Shown: piece by piece, positions 7,732-61,161 of the stretch
Layout of the letters: the number at the start of each line of letters is the position of its first letter
How positions within the stretch are numbered: the stretch's first letter is position 1
Origin: Candidatus Nomurabacteria bacterium
GTDB lineage: Bacteria; Patescibacteriota; Patescibacteriia; HK-STAS-PATE-3
NCBI GenBank assembly: GCA_023898465.1
Contig: CP060223.1
Coordinates: 480,001-544,000, forward strand
Direction of reading: 5' to 3'
Length of the DNA stretch: 64,000 nt
Made by a program: the position numbers and the translations under genes
The notes under the pieces: generated by a model
The model's input: the letters and a program-made list of their open reading frames with translations, nothing else
The model's database searches: none
What the model was told of the DNA's origin: nothing

Positions 7732-10526
7732 TATCTTGGCTCAAAGTTTGCTCCAACGCTGATGCCACCGCGGAAAGCTGGATCAAAAGTAAACATTTGT
7801 TCAATGACACTTCCGTTACCATCAAAAACTCTCAGGTGTGGCCCTCCGCCAATCCCTGCACCCACAATGATATCGTCAGCCCCATCAGCATTCACATCCG
7901 CGCTCGCAATGCGTACTCCTCCGCGAAAATTCTCGGCAAAAGCGAAAAATTGAGACTGCACTTCCCCACTCGCATTAAATACTCGAACATGCGGTCCACC
8001 ATTACTTAAAGGAGCAACGACTATTTCTGATACGCCATTACCATCCACATCACCAACTGCCAGGTCTAAACCGATTCTAAAGTAGCTTGGGTAAGCGAAA
8101 AATTGAGAGACCAGTCCTCCACTCCCATTAAAAACACGCACATGTGGCCCACCGTTACTAATTGGCGCTACAACAATTTCAGGAATAGCATCCCCAGTCA
8201 CATCACCACATGCAACAGAGAGACCTATGCGAAAATATGATGGGTAGGCATAAAATTGACCGTATAAGCCTCCGCCGCTAAAAATGCGCACTTGGGGCGC
8301 TTTTCCTGCACCAGTACCCACAATAATTTCATCACGTCCATCACCATCCAAGTCGCAGGTTGCAATGCTTACTCCACCTCGATAACTTGGCGCATAGGCC
8401 ATAAACTGGTATTCCAAAGCCCCACGCGAGGAAAAGACGCGAATGTGTGGACCACCACTTGAAGCTGGCGCGCTTACAAATTCCATTAATCCATCTCGAT
8501 CAATATCACCTGAAGTAATATTCACTCCTCCAGTAAAGTTTGGAGCATAGGCCATTGTCTCCCATAGGAGACTCCCATCCTGACGCAAGGTTCGCACGGT
8601 TGGACTATGGTTGCTTAAAGGCGCGCTGAGTAGATTAACCCAAACGTCGTAGTTCATCGTATCAGTCGCTGTGCTCACTAACCCTGCCTGATCAGTGGCC
8701 TTCACTGTCACGGTGTTCAATCCCGGCCCTAAAGTAAGCACGCCGGAGTAGGTATTGCCATCACGAAAAGCAAGACGCCCATTCACGGTCACTTCAGCAA
8801 TTCCTGAATCATCGTCACGTGATACGCCAACGATATAATGACGTCGATTCCCGGTTGAGCTACCTGCAAAAGGATACGTTATGGTAACCGTTGGAGCCAG
8901 GGTGTCGATTTTTACTTCAAAGCTATGGGCACTTTCAATGTTGTCAGCAAGATCTTCGGCATAATATTCCACAGTTATATTACCTTTAGGCAAAGTCACT
9001 GCACTGGAGTATGTCTGCCAACTACCGCTATTAATGCGATAAAAAATTGCACTCACCCCAGCGGCATCATCGCTAGCGGACAATGTCATCTGCGGGGCTG
9101 TGCTATAAAAACCATTTTGGCCGTTTGGACTACTGGGACTGAGACTAGCTGAGGATACTGGCGGCGTAACATCAGTAGTGATAACAGACAAGCCGGCATC
9201 AATATCTAAAAGCCCGTATCCATACTCGAGATCATAGCCACTACTACCGAGGTCCTTAGCTGTTTCAGTAAGCACGCCTTTAGCATCAGCAGGATCAGCG
9301 CCGGCTGCTAAAAAGAGTGCTAAGGCAGCACTCACATGTGGAGTGGCCATCGACGTGCCCTGATAGCCCACATAACCAAAAGTGGTAAAATCAGCTGGTA
9401 GGCTATCCCCATCGAGGTTTGTGAATCCTTGCTGGATAATTGATGAGGAGCCATCCCCGCCTGGTGCAACCAAGGCGATATTTTGTCCATAATTAGAGTA
9501 CGAGGCGCGAGTATTTTGTGTGGTATTTCCGGTAGCTCCCACGGCAATAACTCCTGAGGTGCGAGCTGGGTATAGCAAGGTTGAGCTATTTGCATTTCCG
9601 GTAGCAGCGACCACTAGAATTCCCTGAGCAATAGCATCATTTACTGCGTCAGTCAGAGCCTGACTGTAGCTACTTGTTCCCAAGCTCATGGATATAATAT
9701 CAGCGCCGTGTGTTCGCGCATAATCAATCCCCTGCGCAATATCAGCAGTAGTACCATATCCATCTCTGGCTAAAACTTTAACCGGCATGATTGTGCTGTG
9801 ATATGCCAAACCCGCAGCGCCGAGGCTGTTATGTGTTGTCTCTGCTATGGTGCTACTTACATGTGTACCATGTCCATTATCATCATTCGGATGAGTATCT
9901 TCGTTTACAAAGTCATATCCAGTTGTGAAATTTGTGGCACTAAAATCTGGCGCTTTTGCATACTCTGCACCAGCTGATAAGCAATTACCCGGATTTTCTA
10001 CTAAACACTTCGCTGGGTTAGGGTCTGTATATGCTTGATAGGCAACGCCAGTATCTAAGACTGCGACGATAACACTCGGATCACCACCATGGGTTGGACT
10101 GCTCGTGTCATAATCCCAGGCCTGAGACGCTTTTACCTTTGTAAAATTCCATTGCTGGTTATACAAAGGATCATTAGGAGTGAAGGTTGCTCCTACTAAA
10201 TAATTTGGCTCTATATACCGAGTCTCAGGCAATGAGGCAAGTCTATCCTGCAAATCATTTGCCTCAGTTTCATTTGGTAATGAAAAAAGAAAACTCTGCG
10301 CACTTAATTGCTGCACAGTTAAGGAGGGAAAGGTCGAAAGTATAGTGGCGAGATGATCATTATCGGTAATAATGTCACCTTCCTCATTTGCACTTATACC
10401 AGTTGTGGTAAATCCCACAACCCGCTGACCAGGATATACAAACTGACTTTGCGCTTCTACTTGCGGACTAAAAAAACTGAAAATCCAAACTAGAACTATT
10501 CCGCCTATGAAGCGCCCCCATCTCAT
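7731..10526 (-). CDS. secreted subtilisin-like S8 serine protease with Ig-like middle region and C-terminal FG-GAP/VCBS-type beta-propeller
   Basis: Signal peptide. Catalytic triad motifs VAVLDTGV, HGTHVSST, GTSMATPHVS. The C-terminal ~290 aa are ~6 repeats of GGPH(V/I/L)RVF...F.A(Y/F)...FR.G...D(V/L).GDG..EI(I/V)V. Confidence 0.85.
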   Translation of the reverse strand: MRWGRFIGGIVLVWIFSFFSPQVEAQSQFVYPGQRVVGFTTTGISANEEGDIITDNDHLATILSTFPSLTVQQLSAQSFLFSLPNETEANDLQDRLASLPETRYIEPNYLVGATFTPNDPLYNQQWNFTKVKASQAWDYDTSSPTHGGDPSVIVAVLDTGVAYQAYTDPNPAKCLVENPGNCLSAGAEYAKAPDFSATNFTTGYDFVNEDTHPNDDNGHGTHVSSTIAETTHNSLGAAGLAYHSTIMPVKVLARDGYGTTADIAQGIDYARTHGADIISMSLGTSSYSQALTDAVNDAIAQGILVVAATGNANSSTLLYPARTSGVIAVGATGNTTQNTRASYSNYGQNIALVAPGGDGSSSIIQQGFTNLDGDSLPADFTTFGYVGYQGTSMATPHVSAALALFLAAGADPADAKGVLTETAKDLGSSGYDLEYGYGLLDIDAGLSVITTDVTPPVSSASLSPSSPNGQNGFYSTAPQMTLSASDDAAGVSAIFYRINSGSWQTYSSAVTLPKGNITVEYYAEDLADNIESAHSFEVKIDTLAPTVTITYPFAGSSTGNRRHYIVGVSRDDDSGIAEVTVNGRLAFRDGNTYSGVLTLGPGLNTVTVKATDQAGLVSTATDTMNYDVWVNLLSAPLSNHSPTVRTLRQDGSLLWETMAYAPNFTGGVNITSGDIDRDGLMEFVSAPASSGGPHIRVFSSRGALEYQFMAYAPSYRGGVSIATCDLDGDGRDEIIVGTGAGKAPQVRIFSGGGLYGQFYAYPSYFRIGLSVACGDVTGDAIPEIVVAPISNGGPHVRVFNGSGGLVSQFFAYPSYFRIGLDLAVGDVDGNGVSEIVVAPLSNGGPHVRVFNASGEVQSQFFAFAENFRGGVRIASADVNADGADDIIVGAGIGGGPHLRVFDGNGSVIEQMFTFDPAFRGGISVGANFEPR
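7734..8610 (-). repeat. intragenic tandem repeats (~50-55 aa FG-GAP-like blades) in the S8 protease gene
   Basis: Two adjacent blades are nearly identical at protein level (GGPHVRVFNGSGGLVSQFFAYPSYFRIGL... / GGPHVRVFNASGEVQSQFFAFAENFRGGV...). Confidence 0.7.
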
Positions 10527-14913: not shown

Positions 14914-14987
14914 TGGCTCGGGAGCAGGGACTCGAACCCCGGTTACTAGGGCCAGAACCTAGCGTCCTACCACTAGACGACTCCCGA
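14914..14987 (-). tRNA. tRNA-Gln (anticodon CUG), CCA encoded
   Basis: Hand-folded cloverleaf: acceptor TCGGGAG/CTCCCGA, D arm GTCT/GGAC, anticodon stem CTAGG/CCTAG with loop TTCTGGC, T arm CGGGG-TTCGAGT-CCCTG. U1:A72 and G73 are typical of tRNA-Gln. Confidence 0.9.
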
Positions 14988-21099: not shown

Positions 21100-21272
21100 G
21101 TGTGTTCCCCTATACCCCTTAAAACAAATGAAAGTATAACATTTTCATCTTGCTTTCTCAACTTGAAGAAAAAAGAAAAGCCCCGCTCCAATTTGTTCGG
21201 AAGACTCCTCGGGATGAGAAGTGCTCGGAACAAACCAGAGCGGAGCAGATAAGGCCTTACCCAATCAACGGC

Positions 21273-21458
21273 TTAGTATGCACCCATGTACACACTTGCA
21301 CCGACAGCCCATAAAAAGCTGAAAAGAATGAGTAGGGCAGAAAGTGTGACACCTTCCATAACTTCAACCAGGACATGTGGCTGTGCTTTAGCTTGGGCAG
21401 CAGCTGGCTGGTCAGTAGTTGAAGCTACCGGTGTGGTATTCATTTGTGATGGTTCCAT
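21273..21458 (-). CDS. small membrane protein (61 aa, single C-terminal TM helix)
   Basis: ORF followed by a long imperfect hairpin plus a U-run. Function unknown. Confidence 0.4.
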   Translation of the reverse strand: MEPSQMNTTPVASTTDQPAAAQAKAQPHVLVEVMEGVTLSALLILFSFLWAVGASVYMGAY

Positions 21459-21528
21459 TTTTCTTTTTCCTTTTTGCTCCGTTGTACTGAACGGAGATAA
21501 TTTTTTTTAAACCGACTCCCTTCGACCT

Positions 21529-22530
21529 TTATACGGGAACTTGGTTTCGAGATGATGAGGTGGGAAGTGTTGGCGCAATCTTAGGAGCATGCGCTTGCAG
21601 CTCTTCTTCCAGTCGGTTGTCCTTTTCCCACTCTTGGACAACGGTCAGAATATCAGATTCGATAACTGTTGGTACTTTGCCGTCTTGATTGTTCAGTGAC
21701 TCGAGTTTTACTTTGGCAGCCGCTTCATCAATCACATCAATTGCTTTATCCGGGAAATGACGGTTGCTTAATTTTTGATTAGAAAGTTGCACCGCATAAT
21801 TTAATGCCTCGTCGGTAATACGTACACCATGGTGCTTTTCATATCGCGAACGTAATCCATACAAAATTTTTAAAGTCATGTCGGCACTTGGCTCTTCAAT
21901 GGCAACCGGCTGGAAGCGTCGCTCTAGAGTACTGTCACGTGAAATATAATTTGTATACTCTTCAGGGGTAGAAGCGCCAATGACTTGTAACTCACCGCGT
22001 GCTAGAGCCGGCTTCAGAATATCGGCTGCATCAATTGCACCAGATGCCTCACCTGCCTCGGCTAAGGTATGAATCTCGTCGATGAACAAAATGATTGTTC
22101 GGTTCGCATGAATGATTTCATCGCGTAAAGTTTTTAAGCGCTTCTCAAATTCACCGCGATATTTTGTGCCAGCAACCAAGCCAGCTAAGTCGAGAGCTAG
22201 CACGCGTTTCCCTTTCAAAGTTTCGGGAACTTTTCCGTTGGCAATTTCGCTGGCTAACTCCTCAACTATAGCCGTCTTACCAACTCCTGAGTAACCGATC
22301 AACACGGGATTATTTTTTGTACGGCGTGAGAGAATTTGAATAAGTCGATGAATCTCATGACTGCGACCAATCACTGGATCTAATTTCCCTTGGCGTGCAA
22401 GGTGGGTTAAATCATTTGCGTATAAACCTAAAGTCGAGACATGATGGCCGCCATCCCTCTGTCCCTTAACGTAATAAAAAATTACCAGCAGTCCAATCAA
22501 CCCAATTCCGAGTGGTACAAATATTTCCAT
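21529..22530 (-). CDS. membrane-anchored single-domain AAA+ ATPase homologous to the D1 ring of ClpA/ClpB/ClpC
   Basis: N-terminal TM helix [21 protein letters not shown]. Then [77 protein letters not shown]. No N-domain, M-domain or D2. Confidence 0.8.
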
Positions 22531-22578
22531 AACCTTTTTTGTTTTTCTTTTGCTTACAGCGCTTAACGCTGTACGTTT

Positions 22579-22818
22579 TTATTCTTCTGAGGTAACAAAG
22601 ACTTGATCTACGCCGAGCACTTCGCCATTGCGATATGTTTTTGTCGCGCTAGCGGTCGGGATAGTGTCTTGCTTCCCGCCTGTCCAAGTGTAGATGGCGG
22701 AAAAAAGAACTGAGCCAAGTACGATAACACCCACTGACACAACATAGAGCAGGGCTATTTTTTGACTTGTGCTTACTTGTGTAGTGGTTTGTACTGGGAT
22801 TGTTTTTTTATTTGGCAT
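22579..22818 (-). CDS. small membrane protein (79 aa)
   Basis: I place the start at MPNKKT, preceded by AGGAGG. One TM helix. Confidence 0.5.
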   Translation of the reverse strand: MPNKKTIPVQTTTQVSTSQKIALLYVVSVGVIVLGSVLFSAIYTWTGGKQDTIPTASATKTYRNGEVLGVDQVFVTSEE

Positions 22819-22880
22819 AAGGCCTCCTGGTTTGAAAAACAAAGACCATATTCAGTCTTTGTGTTTCTTTTACATTTACT

Positions 22881-22909
22881 ATTCTAGCACACTTTTTTAC
22901 TTTTTGCAA
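22881..22909 (-). promoter_or_regulatory. sigma70-like promoter TTGCAA-N17-TAGAAT for the 22818->17956 gene string
   Basis: Read directly. The leader contains hairpin ACAAAGAC-N8-GTCTTTGT followed by UUUUC, before the SD. Confidence 0.5.
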
Positions 22910-23182
22910 GCATAAAATAACGCGTCAATTGTTTCGGCAATGTTCAATTTAATATATTACCAAACTCCCTGGACTACCACGTTCAGGGAGAGCGCTTCTT
23001 CCGCGAAGGTGGTACTTCGCGGAATTGTAAAGGTGACTTTATTGCCCCCCCTCCCTTCCCTATTCCATGCACCGTCCAAGATAAATTCTTGGACTACGCG
23101 GTTATTATTTTCTCCTGCGTAGCGCAGGCGAAGAATTCATCTTCGCCATTCAGCATCGCTGGAGTTTATACAAAAACTTCAG

Positions 23183-23223
23183 GCAAAAGAAAGACGCCTG
23201 CACTCAAATGAGTAACAGGCGTC
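23183..23223 (-). terminator. intrinsic terminator of the lipoprotein operon
   Basis: GACGCCTG-N15-CAGGCGTC followed on the minus strand by TTTCTTTTG. Confidence 0.55.
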
Positions 23224-23263
23224 ATGGTGGTGAGTGAGTCGGGAAGATCATACTTCCTCCTCA

Positions 23264-23713
23264 CTACTGTCCGCGAACCGTGAAGTCCGGTCCGCCGTTG
23301 TTGTTGGTGCACACCGCGACGACCCAAGCGTACTTGCCCGTGAAACCGCGGACGGTTTCAACTTCGTAGATGCGCTCAGCCGTGATCGCCGGCACGTTGA
23401 TGGTGAAAGTACGAAACACACGATCACTGATCTGTGACTGATACACTTTGATAGTGTATCGCCCCTCGTTCAGGGTCATAGTCCCGTACTCATTGGGATG
23501 CACGGTCAGTCTTCGCGGCGGAGTACCGTCTTGCTCGTCCGCCGCTGCATGCCGAGTGATCTCGTACGACAAGGTGTAGTTCCAGTCGTTCGAGAAGATG
23601 CCTTCCGAACCTGCGAAATCCGGTCCCGTGAGCGTGAATGCACACCCAGAGAGGAGCGACGCTACGATGCCCAGAAGAGCAACGATAGCGAAGAAACGGT
23701 TGAACACCTGCAT
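23264..23713 (-). CDS. putative lipoprotein, unknown function
   Basis: Signal peptide with lipobox LLSGC. GC-rich codon usage. 149 aa. Confidence 0.55.
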   Translation of the reverse strand: MQVFNRFFAIVALLGIVASLLSGCAFTLTGPDFAGSEGIFSNDWNYTLSYEITRHAAADEQDGTPPRRLTVHPNEYGTMTLNEGRYTIKVYQSQISDRVFRTFTINVPAITAERIYEVETVRGFTGKYAWVVAVCTNNNGGPDFTVRGQ

Positions 23714-38789: not shown

Positions 38790-38966
38790 CTACGCCCCCA
38801 AAAACTTCAGCGCCTCGTAGACAAAGAAAACGGGCCAGATAATCGCTTTTAACAAACCGAGTACGCCAATCCAAAATGAAGTCGCTACCGAGATATAGTA
38901 GATAGCGGCACCGATCAGACCGAGACCATAGAAAGCCCCACTACTCCCTGCATTTGCCTTATTCAT
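38790..38966 (-). CDS. small membrane protein (58 aa; below the track cutoff)
   Basis: AAGGAG SD 5 nt upstream of the ATG. Two hydrophobic helices (FYGLGLIGAAIYYI; WIGVLGLLKAIIWPVFFV). Confidence 0.45.
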   Translation of the reverse strand: MNKANAGSSGAFYGLGLIGAAIYYISVATSFWIGVLGLLKAIIWPVFFVYEALKFLGA

Positions 38967-39258: not shown

Positions 39259-39391
39259 CGCAAAGCATACCCAGAAGGCCGCAATGCTATAGAGTAGTCG
39301 AATGGTAAAAGTGAAATAATTTATAGTCGAAGCATATTATTGATAAGTGGAAAGGAAAAGCCGCCGGTAAAGACCAACGGCTAGATGAAAT

Positions 39392-39619
39392 CTAGGCCGC
39401 TCGTTGCTCAGTCCTCAGGATAGCAGAAGCACGACGATACGCTTTGTCTCGCACCGCCTTTGGTACATCCTGCTCTCTTAAGGCACCTTGAATCGAGCCT
39501 AGCTGCACCTCATTCCCCTTACGATAAAAGGTGAGCACAAAGCCTTCAGCGCCTATTTCCACTCGACCATGTAGACGATCAACCTCCAGCACCTCGGTCT
39601 CTGCATCTTGTTCACCCAT
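39392..39619 (-). CDS. small hypothetical protein (75 aa)
   Basis: I prefer the ATG at 39619 because it is preceded by AGGAGG-N5. The longer 161-aa track ORF would run through a structured, promoter-containing region. Confidence 0.45.
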   Translation of the reverse strand: MGEQDAETEVLEVDRLHGRVEIGAEGFVLTFYRKGNEVQLGSIQGALREQDVPKAVRDKAYRRASAILRTEQRAA

Positions 39620-39756
39620 ATGAGCCTCCTGGTCGGGAAAAAGCTCTTCTTGGATTGGTCGCATGTGTCTTTCACGCATATATATATTGTACGCCTCAAG
39701 CAGGAAAAGTAAAAGTAGTCTTGACGAGCCCAAGGCTCGGGGTTTATTATAGCGAC

Positions 39757-39971
39757 ACTTCTCAAGCCGACAGAGAAGTTGTCTCAGAATCCGTTTTGTC
39801 GGCACTCTCGCGTGAATGTTTCGCGGTTCATCGAGAGCGTAGAACGGCGATAGGCTGATGGGACCGATCCCACTCAAAAGCCGAAAAAAAACGGGATCCT
39901 GCCCCAGGCATCAATACTTGTCGCCCGAATTCCAATCGGGAAACATAGATGCGCTGGGGCTCCATTTTTTT
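39757..39971 (+). ncRNA. candidate structured RNA (~215 nt), unknown class
   Basis: TTGACG-N18-TATTAT at 39721-39750. Nested helices: CTCTCG/CGAGAG, TGGGA/TCCCA, CCGTTTT..TCGGC with GCCGA..AAAACGG, CCCCAG(39902)/CTGGGG(39954). Ends in U7 at 39965-39971. Confidence 0.35.
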
Positions 39972-39980
39972 ATAGATACC

Positions 39981-40008
39981 TAAAAGCCAGGAGCTGCCCT
40001 CTCCTGGC
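39981..40008 (-). terminator. intrinsic terminator after the 40035-41186 gene
   Basis: GCCAGGAG-N7-CTCCTGGC followed by TTTTAGG on the minus strand. Confidence 0.6.
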
Positions 40009-40034
40009 CTTTGAGGCTGAAAGGAGGAATGAGC

Positions 40035-41186
40035 CTAATTATCTATTTCAAAATCCCAGAGTGCTTGTACCTGCGACGCGCTTAGGCCGGTGCGTGTCGC
40101 AATCTCTTGAGCCAAACTTGAGGTGCTGGTATTTGCAGAGGTCCACTCATAGCGCTGTGTATCACCACGGCGGGCTTTAATTTCTGTGCCATCTTCACGT
40201 ACCCGGACTTCTATTTCCCATTGGGCTTCTTCTTCATCGCCGTGATCCTCTGAATCGTTTGAATTACTATTACTGTTATGTGAATTGGTATCATCATTCA
40301 CATTTCCTTCATGAGAGTTGGTTGCATCTACATGCGTATTCTTATTATCATTTCCATGATCATCATTGGTGTCAGAATGGTCATCACTGCTATTGGCATT
40401 TTGCAGATCTACACCATCATACTCAATTTTGATAGCTGCCCGAACTTGGGCTTCGCTTAAGCCTAAACGGTCGGTAACTGCTTTAATAATTTCTTCACGA
40501 TCAGTCGTAGTCAGGGTAAACTCACTGTGCTGATTTGCTACTTCAGCCTGAACAAAGGCTTGTGCACCAGCTACGTGCACTTCAATTTCAATTCGCTGAA
40601 GACTATGACTGTTTTGTGCGTCTTCAATCTCACGCAGTTTTACTTCAACGTTACTTAGCGTCGCTGCAGCATGCTCATTTTCTTTGGCTTCTAATTCATC
40701 GCGCACTTCAGCTACGGTTTGTTGCGCATTTTGCAGAGCGGAATTTACATGATCAGCAGCATCTCGAGCTAGTTGCTCCTTTTGCTCTTGCTCTAACTCA
40801 GCTAGCTCTTTTGCTCGCTCAGCTGCAATCTCAGCCTGGATGCGGAGTCGCGCCTCAGCTGAGGTGGCTAAATTTAAACGGACTTGCTCGACGGCTTGAT
40901 CAATACCAAAGAGCCAATCTCCTGGCTTGGCATTATTCGCTGCGAGGACAGTGCCGGTGCCGCTGCCTAATAACACGATAGCGATAAGGATGCTTGCAAT
41001 CATATTTTTGTGATTAAGGAAAAAACCTGATCGCTGCTTATATCGATCAGCTTCCGGGACTGTTACGCTCGATGCAGCCATACGCAAACGAGCCTCAATA
41101 CGTTCACGGGCAGCCGGAGATAAAGACTGAGAATGAGACATCTTTAACAGCTTGATAATTTCTTTTGATGAAAAATGTTTCGACAT
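40035..41186 (-). CDS. anti-sigma-factor-like membrane protein (DUF5667-like): cytoplasmic head, TM helix, coiled coil, His/Asp/Asn-rich region
   Basis: Lies immediately downstream of the ECF sigma gene. One TM helix (ASILIAIVLLGSG). Two similar ...GLS(E/A)(A/S)QV... modules. Confidence 0.55.
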   Translation of the reverse strand: MSKHFSSKEIIKLLKMSHSQSLSPAARERIEARLRMAASSVTVPEADRYKQRSGFFLNHKNMIASILIAIVLLGSGTGTVLAANNAKPGDWLFGIDQAVEQVRLNLATSAEARLRIQAEIAAERAKELAELEQEQKEQLARDAADHVNSALQNAQQTVAEVRDELEAKENEHAAATLSNVEVKLREIEDAQNSHSLQRIEIEVHVAGAQAFVQAEVANQHSEFTLTTTDREEIIKAVTDRLGLSEAQVRAAIKIEYDGVDLQNANSSDDHSDTNDDHGNDNKNTHVDATNSHEGNVNDDTNSHNSNSNSNDSEDHGDEEEAQWEIEVRVREDGTEIKARRGDTQRYEWTSANTSTSSLAQEIATRTGLSASQVQALWDFEIDN

Positions 41187-41190
41187 ATAT

Positions 41191-41736
41191 TTACGAATAA
41201 GAGAGTTGTTCCATTTCCTTGCGTAAGGCTTGCAAAGCCCTATGTTTCAATACGCGCACATTGAGAGCACTGATCTGCATTACTTTTGCCACTTCACTTA
41301 TACTTAGATCCTCTCGATAAAGCATATGGAGCAGAGTTGCGTAGCGTTCAGGAAGGCGGGTTAAGGCTGATTCCATTTCCCGCTCCATTATTACATCTGG
41401 CATCTCATCCGGATCACTTGATAAAGTATGACTCACGCTCTCAATATCAACCTGGGTGCGTTGGCCACGATAATGATCAATCAAGCGGAAACGGGCAATT
41501 TGAAAAAGCCAGGTAGAGAATTTTGCATGTTTCTGCTCCTTATATCGGGGCAATGAGCGAATCATTTCAAGAAAAACAGTTTGGGTTAAATCCTCAGCTG
41601 TTTCCTGACTACTGACCCGCATAAGCAAGAAACGGAACACCCGGTCTCCGAAAAGGTGGAAAAGTTCGGCCACCCCTTCTTGATCCCCTTGTTGCGCTCT
41701 GGCGACGATTTCCTGTACTTGGCTTTCGTGTTGCAT
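41191..41736 (-). CDS. ECF-type sigma-70 family RNA polymerase sigma factor
   Basis: Region 2 (DLTQTVFLEMIRSL..Y....KFSTWLFQIARFRLIDHYR) and region 4 (ISEVAKVMQISALNVRVLKHRAL). Confidence 0.9.
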   Translation of the reverse strand: MQHESQVQEIVARAQQGDQEGVAELFHLFGDRVFRFLLMRVSSQETAEDLTQTVFLEMIRSLPRYKEQKHAKFSTWLFQIARFRLIDHYRGQRTQVDIESVSHTLSSDPDEMPDVIMEREMESALTRLPERYATLLHMLYREDLSISEVAKVMQISALNVRVLKHRALQALRKEMEQLSYS

Positions 41737-41798
41737 AGCGTATATTAGTATATCGGAAATAGGATTATTTTGTTACATCTACCAAGAAATGCTATTAC

Positions 41799-41827
41799 TT
41801 GACATTTTTTCATATCTAGTCTAGTAT
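41799..41827 (+). promoter_or_regulatory. sigma70 promoter TTGACA-N17-TAGTAT
   Basis: Read directly. Points into an ORF-free GC-rich segment. Confidence 0.5.
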
Positions 41828-41833
41828 ATGCAC

Positions 41834-42191
41834 TCGATGTTCATTAGAAATGAGAGAGAGGCGGGATGAGATAGGTGTCCCCCCAGACACCTCGCTACCT
41901 TCATACAGCGGTAGTTGCATCATCCCACTGCCCGAAGCGGCTCCCCACCCTTGTTACTACTTGTACTGGCTTCATCCCTAAGGATCCCCCGCCAGTCTGG
42001 TGCTGACATGTTCGGCGTCATATCCTTATGGTCTATTGGCTGCAAAGCTGATCACCTTTTGTGATGATGACTCACCGATGCTTCGGCTCAGATGCCTCTC
42101 TCTCCACCTACGCCTGCGCACCTGAGCACTCCCCCAGGCTCACTGCGCATGTGCCCCCGTCGTGTCGTTGTACCGACGGGGGTGCTTTTTT
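41834..42191 (+). ncRNA. candidate large structured RNA (~360 nt), unknown class
   Basis: No ORF of 60 aa or more on either strand between 41737 and 42232. An 11-nt perfect long-range complement GAGAGAGAGGC (41852-62) / GCCTCTCTCTC (42094-104). Several internal hairpins. Terminator CCCCCGTCG-N11-CGACGGGGG + U6 at 42154-42191. Confidence 0.5.
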
Positions 42192-42232
42192 ATAAAAAGA
42201 AATCCCCAGGCCGATTGGTCTGGGGATGAGAA

Positions 42233-42679
42233 CTAGAACTGTTGTGCTGAACGCATCCGATGAAGCGTGCTACACACCAGTCCAATACCAGAGCGACGCT
42301 CTACACAGAACTGATACACCCGTTGCGCCGCCATGAGCTTTTCATAGAGCGCCTGACCATGCTTAGTGGCTAGTTCGTTTCGCATCTCCCGGTCTAGACC
42401 TTGGTAATACGAACCAAGCAGCAGATAGCGCACTAGAAGCCACCCCAGTAACCCGGAGCTGAGCAGCATCGCTGTTAAAGCACCGGGCAGAGTCAGATAC
42501 CCGAGCAAATCCTCCAGTCTTGCCCAGTAGTACACTGCAACAAGCTCAAATAGCAGAAACGCTAGCGTGGCTATAGTTGACCCTATCCGGATAAACAGGC
42601 GCCACCTTTTCACTCTCTCGCACAACTCTAGAATCTCTTCTTCTTGAACACTGAGTTGCGCGTAGAGGAAATTCGACAT
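42233..42679 (-). CDS. GC-rich two-TM membrane protein, unknown function
   Basis: I place the start at MSNFLYAQ, preceded by GGGAGGTG. Terminator CCCCAG-N10-CTGGGG + U-run downstream. 66 nt downstream of the heliorhodopsin stop. Confidence 0.5.
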   Translation of the reverse strand: MSNFLYAQLSVQEEEILELCERVKRWRLFIRIGSTIATLAFLLFELVAVYYWARLEDLLGYLTLPGALTAMLLSSGLLGWLLVRYLLLGSYYQGLDREMRNELATKHGQALYEKLMAAQRVYQFCVERRSGIGLVCSTLHRMRSAQQF

Positions 42680-42745: not shown

Positions 42746-43528
42746 TTAAGGCCGGAGAGTACCGGAAAACATTTGCCAGGCTAGAGCTGATTTCGCCACC
42801 AGGGACAAAATCATATAGGCCTTTTCACCGTAGAGATAGTCCTGCCATTTCCCTATCTTCTTATACTGCAGGACCATGTTAATCGCGAAGATGTTAAAGG
42901 TGACAAAGATGGTGGCCACAATGAAATAAACAAAGGTAGGAATCTCCACTCCGGTCGACTGTACCGCGCCAATGAAGAAAGCAACAATGACCAGCCAGGG
43001 AATTAAGCCAGCCAAAACTCCTATCCAGTACGAAAGCCAATTCGTATGCTTGGTCGTCTGATTATGTACTTCCATCATCAAGCCCATGAGATTCATAATC
43101 GCATTCAAGGCAAACAGCGAAATGAGTAGCCAAAGATCGTACACACCACAAAGCATGGCAATAACTACAATCATAACTGACGAGGATAAGGCATACTCAG
43201 CCCAACGCAGCTTGTTGATGCCCTTTTTCAAATTCTCCTCATACCATTCCCGCAAAGGTCCGGCTAGAAGGAAATGCGCAAAAGCAGAAAGGAAGAGAAA
43301 GACCGCTACGGTGGGGCCTAAGCGTAAGTCAAACAAATGCTCAGGAAGTGGAGCTACACCAAAAACTGGATTATTTGGATCGATTTTCAGGTATGAAGTA
43401 ACAACTGGTAAAGATGAATTATTGCTTATCAAAACCATAATGACGCCTTGCACGAAGTGAAGGGCGGCCATTGACCAATTCCAGACTTGTAGTTTTTTTA
43501 ACTGCTCTTTTTGACTACGCATTTTCAT
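42746..43528 (-). CDS. heliorhodopsin
   Basis: 260 aa, 7 TM. RWAEYALSSSVMIVVIAMLCG and GEKAYMILSLVAKSALAWQMFSGTLRP closely match my recollection of heliorhodopsin 48C12 (RWVEYSLSSSVMIVLIAQICG; GERAYIVLSLVAKSALAWQIFSGTLIPA). This includes the Schiff-base Lys and the counterion Glu. Confidence 0.85.
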   Translation of the reverse strand: MKMRSQKEQLKKLQVWNWSMAALHFVQGVIMVLISNNSSLPVVTSYLKIDPNNPVFGVAPLPEHLFDLRLGPTVAVFLFLSAFAHFLLAGPLREWYEENLKKGINKLRWAEYALSSSVMIVVIAMLCGVYDLWLLISLFALNAIMNLMGLMMEVHNQTTKHTNWLSYWIGVLAGLIPWLVIVAFFIGAVQSTGVEIPTFVYFIVATIFVTFNIFAINMVLQYKKIGKWQDYLYGEKAYMILSLVAKSALAWQMFSGTLRP

Positions 43529-59621: not shown

Positions 59622-59649
59622 TTGACAAAAGCCCTCTTTTTAGTATACT
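59622..59649 (+). promoter_or_regulatory. sigma70 promoter TTGACA-N16-TATACT
   Basis: Read directly, ~70 nt upstream of the GTG start at 59719. Confidence 0.5.
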
Positions 59650-59718: not shown

Positions 59719-61161
59719 GTGGTGCAGAAGACTGCCACGGCTTGGGTCGTGGCATTCATTCTTCTGTTCTGCCACGCTCAAGCCTCGACTGCTACAGTCA
59801 CTCATTTCGTTTTTGGCATGCGCGGCAACGCGAATGTCGACGTGTGTGACAACGGCGACCTTCGCCAGTTTCACACCACGCCGGCAGGTGGACTCGTATT
59901 CACCAGTATGGGAGGTGGCGAATTCGAGATCGGTCTCGAGGGTCAAGTCAGCTGCAGTCGTGATGGAGGAGGTGGAGAAAACCTCATCCAAAACGGCGCT
60001 TTTGACCAGGGCACTTGCTCAGAATGGGAATTGGAGGACCCCAATGGACGCGCTGCAGCATCCTGTAGCAATGAGGGTCGCGTCACCGTGCAGAGTAGCG
60101 GACAATACTACGAAGTCCAGCTCAAGCAATCGATCCCGCTGATCAATGGTCAATGGTATCGTCTGAGCTTCGACGGCGACAGTAGCGTTCGCCACATCAT
60201 ACCGGTCGGAATTATCAATCCGGCCAGCTATGATTCGATCGGCCTCTGGGCTGATTGCGATCTGCACACCGATCGACGCAGCTTCGAATACCTTTTTCGC
60301 TCCAGTGAGACCATCTCTGATGCACGCTTCAGTTTCTACATTGGTGAACATCCGGCGACCTATCGTTTCGACAACGTAACGATAGTGCCGGTTGATCCCA
60401 GTGCAGACTGTTTCCGTGCTCCAGGTGAACTCATTGTGAACGGAGGGTTCGAGTGCGATCAGGTCTGCCAGCACGCTTGGCGATTCGAGGATCACTTTGG
60501 ACCCGGCTATGCTCTGTGCGATGCTGTGTCCCATAGTGGTGCTCACTCAGCCAAGCTACGACCAGCTCAAGCGGGTCAGTACTACGAAACGCAGTATCAG
60601 CAGCTTGTCACTGTCCAACAGGGACAACGCTATGAATTGCGTTTCTACGCCCGGACCAATCGTGACCCGCAGACTATTGTGGTCGAGCTGGTTGACCCAC
60701 AGAGCTTTGCGAACCGCGGACTCGTCTTTGGTCCCGTGCTCAACAGTAGCTGGACTGAGGTGCGACAAAGCTTCACTGCCAATCGTAGTGGTGTTGCTCG
60801 TCTCGGTTTTGCGGTTGGTAACTGGGACCCTGGTACTCCGGTCTGGATCGACGACGTCAGCTTGCGTCCGGTACTTAGCGTCGGAGGCGGTGACGCACAA
60901 AGCGCGACACCATCAGCCCTGGCCACCCAAGCGAACGCTGCAGTCTTTGCTCTAGAGCAACGAGCTGATGTTCGTATCAACGTCTTTGACGTGGGAGGAC
61001 GTCAAATTGCTGGCGAGTCTCGCTCCTTGTCTGCCGGGACTCATACCTACATCTGGGACGGATTGCTGCACAGCGGTGTCCGTGCTCCCAGCGGCATTTA
61101 CTTTGTCCAGGTCACCGGCGCTAGTGTCCATGCCATCAAACGCATTGTAATGGTGCGTTAG
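59719..61161 (+). CDS. secreted protein with two CBM4/9-like jelly-roll modules and a FlgD-Ig / T9SS type-A-like C-terminal domain
   Basis: Signal peptide. Duplicated NLIQNGAFDQG..EWE / ELIVNGGFECD...AWRFED openings with F.FY / LRFYAR and W(I)DDVS(L) endings. C-terminal RINVFDVGGRQI....LSAGTHTYIWDG......APSGIYFVQV........KRIVMVR. Confidence 0.65.
   Translation: MVQKTATAWVVAFILLFCHAQASTATVTHFVFGMRGNANVDVCDNGDLRQFHTTPAGGLVFTSMGGGEFEIGLEGQVSCSRDGGGGENLIQNGAFDQGTCSEWELEDPNGRAAASCSNEGRVTVQSSGQYYEVQLKQSIPLINGQWYRLSFDGDSSVRHIIPVGIINPASYDSIGLWADCDLHTDRRSFEYLFRSSETISDARFSFYIGEHPATYRFDNVTIVPVDPSADCFRAPGELIVNGGFECDQVCQHAWRFEDHFGPGYALCDAVSHSGAHSAKLRPAQAGQYYETQYQQLVTVQQGQRYELRFYARTNRDPQTIVVELVDPQSFANRGLVFGPVLNSSWTEVRQSFTANRSGVARLGFAVGNWDPGTPVWIDDVSLRPVLSVGGGDAQSATPSALATQANAAVFALEQRADVRINVFDVGGRQIAGESRSLSAGTHTYIWDGLLHSGVRAPSGIYFVQVTGASVHAIKRIVMVR

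Follow-up and report, generated by a model that had tools for sequence, protein, structure and literature searches.

Stand-alone small RNA (sRNA) genes lie between protein-coding genes and consist of an orphan sigma-70 promoter followed by a Rho-independent terminator, and they are the class targeted by predictors that work from promoters and terminators. Some antisense RNAs are reportedly under riboswitch control, such as the B12-riboswitch-regulated AspocR of Listeria and the S-box antisense RNA in Clostridium acetobutylicum. We know of no characterized sRNAs in the Patescibacteria, and a literature search for them found nothing relevant. These organisms are ultra-small and uncultivated, and their regulatory RNAs are essentially uncharted.

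We analysed a window of 64,000 nucleotides from a Candidatus Nomurabacteria (Patescibacteria/CPR) MAG with a genome of 1.08 Mb. The order of genes on the minus strand is heliorhodopsin, a 167-aa ORF, ECF sigma factor, DUF5667 anti-sigma factor, and a small protein gene ending at 39392, beyond which lie several small membrane and zinc-ribbon proteins. The main features are as follows.

39392-39679, minus strand: small protein gene, 95 aa (90 aa from ATG 39664 in the NCBI annotation, USN54028.1)
39686-39713, minus strand: TTTACT-N16-TACAAT, the promoter-like site of the small protein gene; -10 box at 39691-39686
39757-39971, plus strand: candidate small RNA of about 215 nt, here called RNA1; MFE -80.5 to -81 kcal/mol, z -4.36; non-coding
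39982-40012, minus strand: sigma/anti-sigma operon terminator, formed by the hairpin GCCAGGAG...CTCCTGGC and a U tail; lies outside RNA1
40035-41186, minus strand: anti-sigma gene (DUF5667), product identical to that of NCBI H6760_02560; stop codon at 40035-40037
41191-41736, minus strand: ECF sigma factor gene
41834-42192, plus strand: second candidate RNA of about 360 nt, here called RNA2 (the "island C" RNA of the first-pass annotation), with a TTGACA-N17-TAGTAT promoter match; unit from 41799; z -6.4
42746-43528, minus strand: heliorhodopsin gene (Pfam E 2e-98), the second gene upstream of the ECF sigma operon

The wider surroundings are ordinary chromosomal genes (copper ATPase, ArsR regulator, MFS transporter, LiaF), and searches of the small proteins adjoining RNA1 with PADLOC and PHROGs gave no phage or defence signature. 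The only tRNA or tmRNA found in the window by ARAGORN was a tRNA-Gln at 14.9 kb. The GC content is 0.51-0.53 over 39.4-40.1 kb, compared with about 0.40-0.45 in the flanks. Compared with a second assembly of the same organism (L001), the window differs only by six substitutions within 61 nt (40485-40545), which sit in a low-complexity part of the anti-sigma gene rich in Asn, Asp, His, and Ser.

The NCBI annotation has no feature between H6760_02555 and H6760_02560. The genes on either side of RNA1 are both on the minus strand and are separated by 356 nt, of which about 270 nt are not needed for their promoter and terminator. We tentatively propose, at a little under an even chance, that 39757-39971 on the plus strand is an unannotated, lineage-restricted small non-coding RNA gene. 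Its component parts are the following.

39721-39750, plus strand: sigma-70-type promoter-like site TTGACG-N18-TATTAT, 10/12 matches, predicted +1 at A39757
39725-39739, no strand assigned: palindrome CGAGCC-CAA-GGCTCG, a perfect 6-bp inverted repeat in the spacer of that site
39757-39779, plus strand: 5' hairpin ACUUCUC/GAGAAGU, 7 bp with a 9-nt loop; mean pair probability 0.87
39787-39898, plus strand: four-way-junction core made of P1-P4; -40.6 kcal/mol
39787-39803 with 39880-39898, plus strand: long-range helix P1, 15 bp, which closes the four-way junction
39805-39837, plus strand: hairpin P2, 12 bp; CTCTCG/CGAGAG (39805-39810 with 39832-39837) extended by GUGAAU/GUUCAU
39845-39857, plus strand: weak hairpin P3, 4 bp; pair probability 0.6
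39859-39872, plus strand: hairpin P4, 5 bp; UGGGA/UCCCA at 39859-39863 and 39868-39872
39901-39960, plus strand: interrupted terminal hairpin of 60 nt, 20 bp, containing CCCGA/UCGGG; pair probabilities 0.96-1.0

The region has the anatomy of an independent plus-strand transcription unit, as the first-pass annotation of this DNA had claimed. That annotation described a rightward TTGACG-N18-TATTAT promoter, nested helices (CTCTCG/CGAGAG, TGGGA/TCCCA, and a long-range pairing of CCGTTTT.TCGGC), and a terminal hairpin containing CCCGA/TCGGG followed by U7. We recovered the promoter-like site at 39721-39750, all of the helices within a few bases of where they had been placed, and the hairpin with its U-tract at 39901-39971. 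The boxes of the promoter-like site, TTGACG at 39721-39726 and TATTAT at 39745-39750, are separated by an 18-nt spacer, and there is no extended -10 box. The site is back to back with that of the 95-aa gene, with 7 nt between the two -35 boxes, and the palindrome, which lies between the two promoters, could be an operator. Two elements had gone unmentioned earlier: the 5' hairpin, which starts exactly at the predicted +1, and an A8 tract at 39885-39892, which mirrors the U7.

In helix P1, UCCGUUUU.UCGGC (39790-39803) is paired with GCCGA...AAAACGGG (39880-39895). The MFE and centroid structures are both a branched junction with a separate 3' hairpin, with the 5' and 3' ends of RNA1 unpaired with one another. 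The terminal hairpin is followed by UCCA and then by U7 (39965-39971), a 4-nt spacer that is suboptimal for termination. The minus strand also has a terminator-like site at 39906-39892, followed by T8, and the hairpin at 39901-39960 with its A8 and U7 tracts looks in form like a bidirectional intrinsic terminator.

Transcription of this unit, both transcript ends, and any function are inferred from these features. Transcription would start at A39757 from the sigma-70-type promoter, which is back to back with the one serving the 95-aa gene. The predicted structure of the RNA comprises the 5' hairpin, the four-way junction closed by the 15-bp helix, and the long hairpin with its U-tract, and the transcript would end at about 39971, a short distance ahead of the terminator that serves the convergent ECF sigma/anti-sigma operon. 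Since no co-oriented gene follows RNA1, the predicted RNA would most likely be free-standing, either trans-acting or protein-binding, rather than a leader. For the same reason, that there is no plus-strand gene downstream, we rejected a riboswitch in a co-oriented 5' leader. A cis-antisense or type I toxin-antitoxin RNA was also rejected, as the only frame overlapping RNA1 is the spurious N-terminal extension of a 161-aa ORF (discussed below). Target prediction was uninformative, because the best RNAduplex energy of RNA1 against 51 translation-start regions of the window (-51.8) equals the mean best energy of shuffled RNA1 (-51.6).

The 218-nt plus-strand segment folds with -81 kcal/mol (z -4.36), and none of 200 dinucleotide shuffles folded as well; the minus strand of the same segment has a z of -3.09. 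Most of the z signal comes from the terminator hairpin, with a z of -5.39, while the first 142 nt of RNA1 have a z of -2.17. The 112-nt core has a z of -2.91 on the plus strand and -1.70 on the minus strand (-34.3 kcal/mol), so that it is more stable on the plus strand by 6.3 kcal/mol, a difference that reflects four G-U pairs. We also scanned the whole window for structure by an MFE regression on 218-nt windows, in which the RNA1 region was about 3.3 sd below the expected MFE and was approximately the fifth most structured cluster. A GC-rich protein gene with CBM_4_9 and FlgD_ig domains (59719-61161, plus strand) was as structured as the RNA candidates by MFE residual, and fold stability alone therefore identifies no RNA gene here. 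An 11/12 promoter match is found just upstream of this protein gene, at 59622-59649. The most structured 218-nt windows of the 64 kb, at 22900-23330 (plus strand) and 21100-21400 (minus strand), have residuals of -5.9 and -4.5 sd, respectively, and fall in the large intergenic gaps 22530-23498 and approximately 21250-21529; neither has an Rfam match at the gathering threshold.

Promoter matches of at least 10/12 occur in the window at chance frequency (18 seen and 14.5 expected), so that only its position supports the promoter-like site of RNA1. On each strand such a match should turn up about every 8.8 kb, and the chance that a given terminator has one 120-260 nt upstream in the same orientation is consequently about 2%. 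Taken singly, the features of RNA1 are moderately unusual; it is their joint occurrence, in the right order and on one strand, that stands out.

Rfam searches, which the first-pass annotation had proposed as a check, placed RNA1 in no family at either gathering or permissive thresholds. With Rfam 15 and gathering thresholds, the only match in the whole window was the tRNA at 14917-14987. At E <= 10 over 39300-42400 and 39740-39985, the best score in RNA1 was 13.9 bits, compared with family thresholds of more than 50, and the weak matches in RNA1 cover only its terminator hairpin. In the permissive search, the neighbouring hairpin at 39982-40012 aligned to the FsrA model, but only at the terminator end of that model.

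The only other contigs found with the small protein, two in number, belong to the same organism and show no difference anywhere in RNA1. SRR23493594 and ERZ28655839 carry the same sequence. We used the ECF sigma factor to retrieve five patescibacterial loci, with sigma factors 40-57% identical, and also examined two Logan loci; the nearest anti-sigma homologs are 32% identical. No RNA1-like element was found beside the sigma/anti-sigma operon in any of these seven loci. A 500-nt gap in one of them (L008) was considered as a site for an RNA and rejected, as what it contains is a small ORF that has both a Shine-Dalgarno sequence and a terminator. An nhmmer search with RNA1 and RNA2 against the five sigma loci gave no match. 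A covariance model of 39785-39962, designated R1, found only itself in the window and 13 loci with default filters. No homolog came up in 10 related loci, either with default filters or without filters. When the filters were turned off, the best foreign match had 14.7 bits (8935-9077, plus strand, of locus L006), compared with 13.3 bits for the best unrelated match within the window. We rejected this match as a homolog of RNA1, since its score is no better than chance, it lacks P2, and its orientation with respect to the sigma gene is reversed. The matched segment, from a Candidatus Parcubacteria MAG, is itself intergenic with a z of -3.85 and has a long-range helix, small hairpins, and a terminal hairpin, and the gene that follows it also looks leaderless (TATAAT-N6-ATG).

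A blastn search against phages and plasmids gave no match, a pattern based on the junction (fixed loops, free stems) had no matches in viral and metagenome contigs, and a scan of viral contigs for one exact 18-mer likewise had none. No homologs with covarying pairs were found in the loci, phages, plasmids, and viral and metagenome sequences searched, a set with limited coverage of whole genomes. RNA1 has no similarity to RNA2 or to the other large intergenic gaps of the window, and for this reason we do not consider it a repeat or mobile element.

The first-pass annotation had assigned the gene divergent from RNA1 a start at ATG 39619, preceded by AGGAGG-N5, which would give a 75-aa orphan protein. 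Neither the start nor the orphan status is upheld. A phmmer search identified two homologs of the 95-aa protein, P0006 (101 aa) and P0007 (104 aa), and a profile search added a further relative, P0008, so that the family has four members. Residues M1, E3, P8, Q10, E11, L13, and F14 (95-aa numbering) are invariant in the four-way alignment, and the three distant homologs keep the N-terminal segment M-x-R-E...P-I-Q-E-E-L-F. Because these invariant residues are encoded upstream of ATG 39619, the predicted start of the coding sequence is ATG 39679, or ATG 39664 as NCBI has it, and the AGGAGG is internal to the gene. The A of ATG 39679 is the seventh base after the TACAAT -10 box, and because of this 7-nt distance the mRNA is probably leaderless. 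The homolog at locus L010 has the same layout, TAATAT-N7-ATG, with no Shine-Dalgarno sequence. The coding sequence starts 78 nt from the start of RNA1, and the two do not overlap.

In the 95-aa protein, a disordered N-terminal tail that includes the invariant QE[ED]LF precedes four beta strands, and a helix forms the C-terminus. The AlphaFold model has a pLDDT of 76, with QE[ED]LF in the low-confidence tail, and Foldseek found no fold relative in the PDB with E < 0.1. The QE[ED]LF motif resembles beta-clamp-binding pentapeptides such as QLxLF and QADMF. Scans of metagenome and viral contigs for the protein family gave no confirmed relative. A 58-aa membrane protein encoded nearby (38790-38966, minus strand) is 73% identical to a protein encoded at 1397-1576 of locus L015, about 270 nt downstream of the 95-aa homolog there, and flavodoxin and zinc-ribbon genes recur near family members in loci L011-L013 and L015. 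The loci of the 95-aa family suggest a small conserved neighbourhood. The firmer practical result of this analysis is the correction of the neighbouring gene to one for a protein of 90-95 aa that belongs to a four-member family and probably has a leaderless mRNA.

RNA2 has a long-range closing helix and a strong terminator (42153-42190), and no Rfam match at E <= 10. On fold statistics it is a stronger candidate than RNA1. The two RNAs are alike in their consensus-like promoters, compact folds, and terminators, and in lying on the strand opposite to all neighbouring genes. It had been claimed that RNA1 and its small protein repeat a pairing of RNA and small protein seen at RNA2. We found no support for this claim: RNA1 and RNA2 are unrelated in sequence, the 167-aa ORF next to RNA2 is unrelated to the 95-aa protein, and the loci of the 95-aa homologs lack RNA1. 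The geometry also differs: RNA1 and the small protein gene are divergent, whereas RNA2 diverges from the sigma operon and converges on the 167-aa ORF. Whether the partners co-occur in other genomes had been raised at the same time, and we found the 95-aa family elsewhere without RNA1. No RNA1-like element was present beside the P0006, P0007, and P0008 homologs in loci L010, L011-L014, and L015, which have co-oriented genes upstream instead of RNA1. In L015 a zinc-ribbon gene occupies the position where RNA1 would be, despite the 73% identical 58-aa neighbour.

It is conceivable, though in our estimation unlikely, that RNA1 and RNA2 are both real lineage-specific structured RNAs that bracket the ECF sigma/anti-sigma operon as an RNA control layer. 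RNA2 would share a divergent promoter region with the sigma gene, and RNA1 would converge on the anti-sigma gene. Such an arrangement would be an RNA layer over an envelope-stress sigma factor, and the two RNAs would rank, to our knowledge, with the earliest small RNAs to be described from the Candidate Phyla Radiation.

What the analysis shows of this segment is the set of features described above, the stability of the fold and its strand asymmetry, the non-coding character of the region, and its absence from known families. The same segment could also be spacer DNA that holds a fail-safe bidirectional terminator and the promoter of the 95-aa gene, with the plus-strand promoter match and the core fold being products of chance. 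This explanation, the main rival, is somewhat doubtful in our judgement, but several of the observations fit it. The promoter match is of a kind that occurs at chance frequency (18 and 14.5), the z of the core is only -2.9 (-2.2 when the 5' hairpin is included), a coding gene attains an equal MFE residual, and the hairpin is also a minus-strand terminator followed by U8. There is likewise no conservation in any relative examined and no Rfam match, and the best foreign match to R1 (14.7 bits) is to be set beside the 13.3 bits that chance provides within the window. Counted directly against an sRNA gene are the lack of homologs, the origin of most of the z in the terminator hairpin, the chance frequency of the promoter together with its 18-nt spacer and missing extended -10 box, the lack of the element in the closest relatives of the flanking genes, and the 4 nt between the stem and U7. 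A fail-safe function, however, is at odds with the presence of the operon's own terminator at 40012-39982, and the well-paired stretch of about 140 nt that separates the hairpin from the promoter-like site would be left without a role. The fold is clearly better on the plus strand than on the minus strand, and the order of promoter, +1 hairpin, and terminator would be a coincidence of about 2%. In favour of the sRNA proposal, promoter-like site, helices, and terminator occur in the right order on one strand, and another unit built in the same way is found 2 kb away (41799-42190). RNA1 also has the 3' intrinsic terminator expected of an sRNA gene, is non-coding, and is not the leader of a co-oriented gene.

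Two other explanations assign the segment a different kind of function, and we consider both less probable still. RNA1 could be a cis-acting element of the riboswitch or attenuator type, whose terminator sets the amount of antisense read-through into the convergent anti-sigma/sigma operon. The layout agrees with this, as the promoter is followed by the P1-closed junction and the terminator, beyond which the anti-sigma gene reaches its 3' end on the opposite strand. Bases that would lengthen the terminator stem towards the U-tract overlap with the 3' strand of P1 (AAAACGGG, GGA), so that formation of P1 could change the efficiency of termination. UGUCGGC moreover has two possible partners, GCCGACA (39766-39772) and GCCGA (39880-39884), and an alternative fold lies 3.7 kcal/mol above the MFE. 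We nevertheless judge this explanation quite improbable: no known aptamer class matches at E <= 10, inspection revealed no convincing anti-terminator pairing, chance alone would by our estimate give about 1.4 complementarities of 7 nt in a 215-nt sequence, there is no conservation that would define a binding pocket, and the second hairpin at 39982-40012 would obstruct read-through. The region could also be protein-coding, given that open frames exist in it, namely the 161-aa minus-strand frame and a 41-aa plus-strand ORF (39858-39983). Codon-usage log-odds, trained on 22 long genes of the window, are 0.27 +/- 0.11 for real genes (5th percentile 0.07) and 0.34 for the small protein CDS, but -0.17, below the 5th percentile, for the part of the 161-aa ORF that crosses RNA1 (its first 66 codons), and -0.21 for the 41-aa ORF; the best ORF overlapping RNA1 scores 0.009. 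The first-pass annotation had already called the 161-aa ORF a probable artefact, to be overturned by homologs that keep the long frame, and our results agree: the homologs P0006 and P0007 begin near residues 67-76 of this frame, a phmmer search of 1.84 billion representatives aligned nothing to its residues 1-67, and none of the gene callers, NCBI included, adopts it. The 41-aa ORF was rejected because of its score, the lack of a Shine-Dalgarno sequence before TTG 39877, and its passage through the terminator hairpin and U-tract. An 18-aa plus-strand ORF at ATG 40029 was also set aside, since its AGGAGG is only 1 nt away and it overlaps the anti-sigma stop codon. We therefore regard a coding function as extremely improbable.

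RNA1 is at present one unverified sRNA prediction among many. If transcribed, it would be a new small RNA without a family in the Patescibacteria, adjoining an ECF sigma/anti-sigma pair, and would be of local interest for regulation in reduced genomes.

Among the Rfam families of free-standing RNAs, 6S RNA, raiA, and SRP RNA resemble RNA1 in being about 200 nt long and encoded by a free-standing gene. RNA1 differs from 6S RNA in having a branched junction and a terminator rather than a rod with a central bubble, and it has no Rfam 6S match. Like the riboswitch-controlled antisense RNAs, RNA1 has a structured 5' domain followed by a terminator and faces a convergent regulatory operon, but it has no aptamer match, clear anti-terminator, or conservation. 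As in bidirectional terminators between convergent units, a G+C-rich hairpin (39901-39960) lies between an A-tract and a U-tract where plus- and minus-strand transcription would meet. This hairpin is unusually long for such a terminator (60 nt, interrupted), it lies downstream of a promoter-like site and about 140 nt of further paired bases, and the minus-strand operon already has a terminator of its own. The candidate RNA1 differs from stand-alone sRNA genes in having no homologs among the sequences searched, no known target or chaperone partner, and a patescibacterial host. It is like them in being intergenic, non-coding, and about 200 nt long, in ending in a strong hairpin and U-tract downstream of a promoter-like site of its own, and in having no co-oriented gene downstream.
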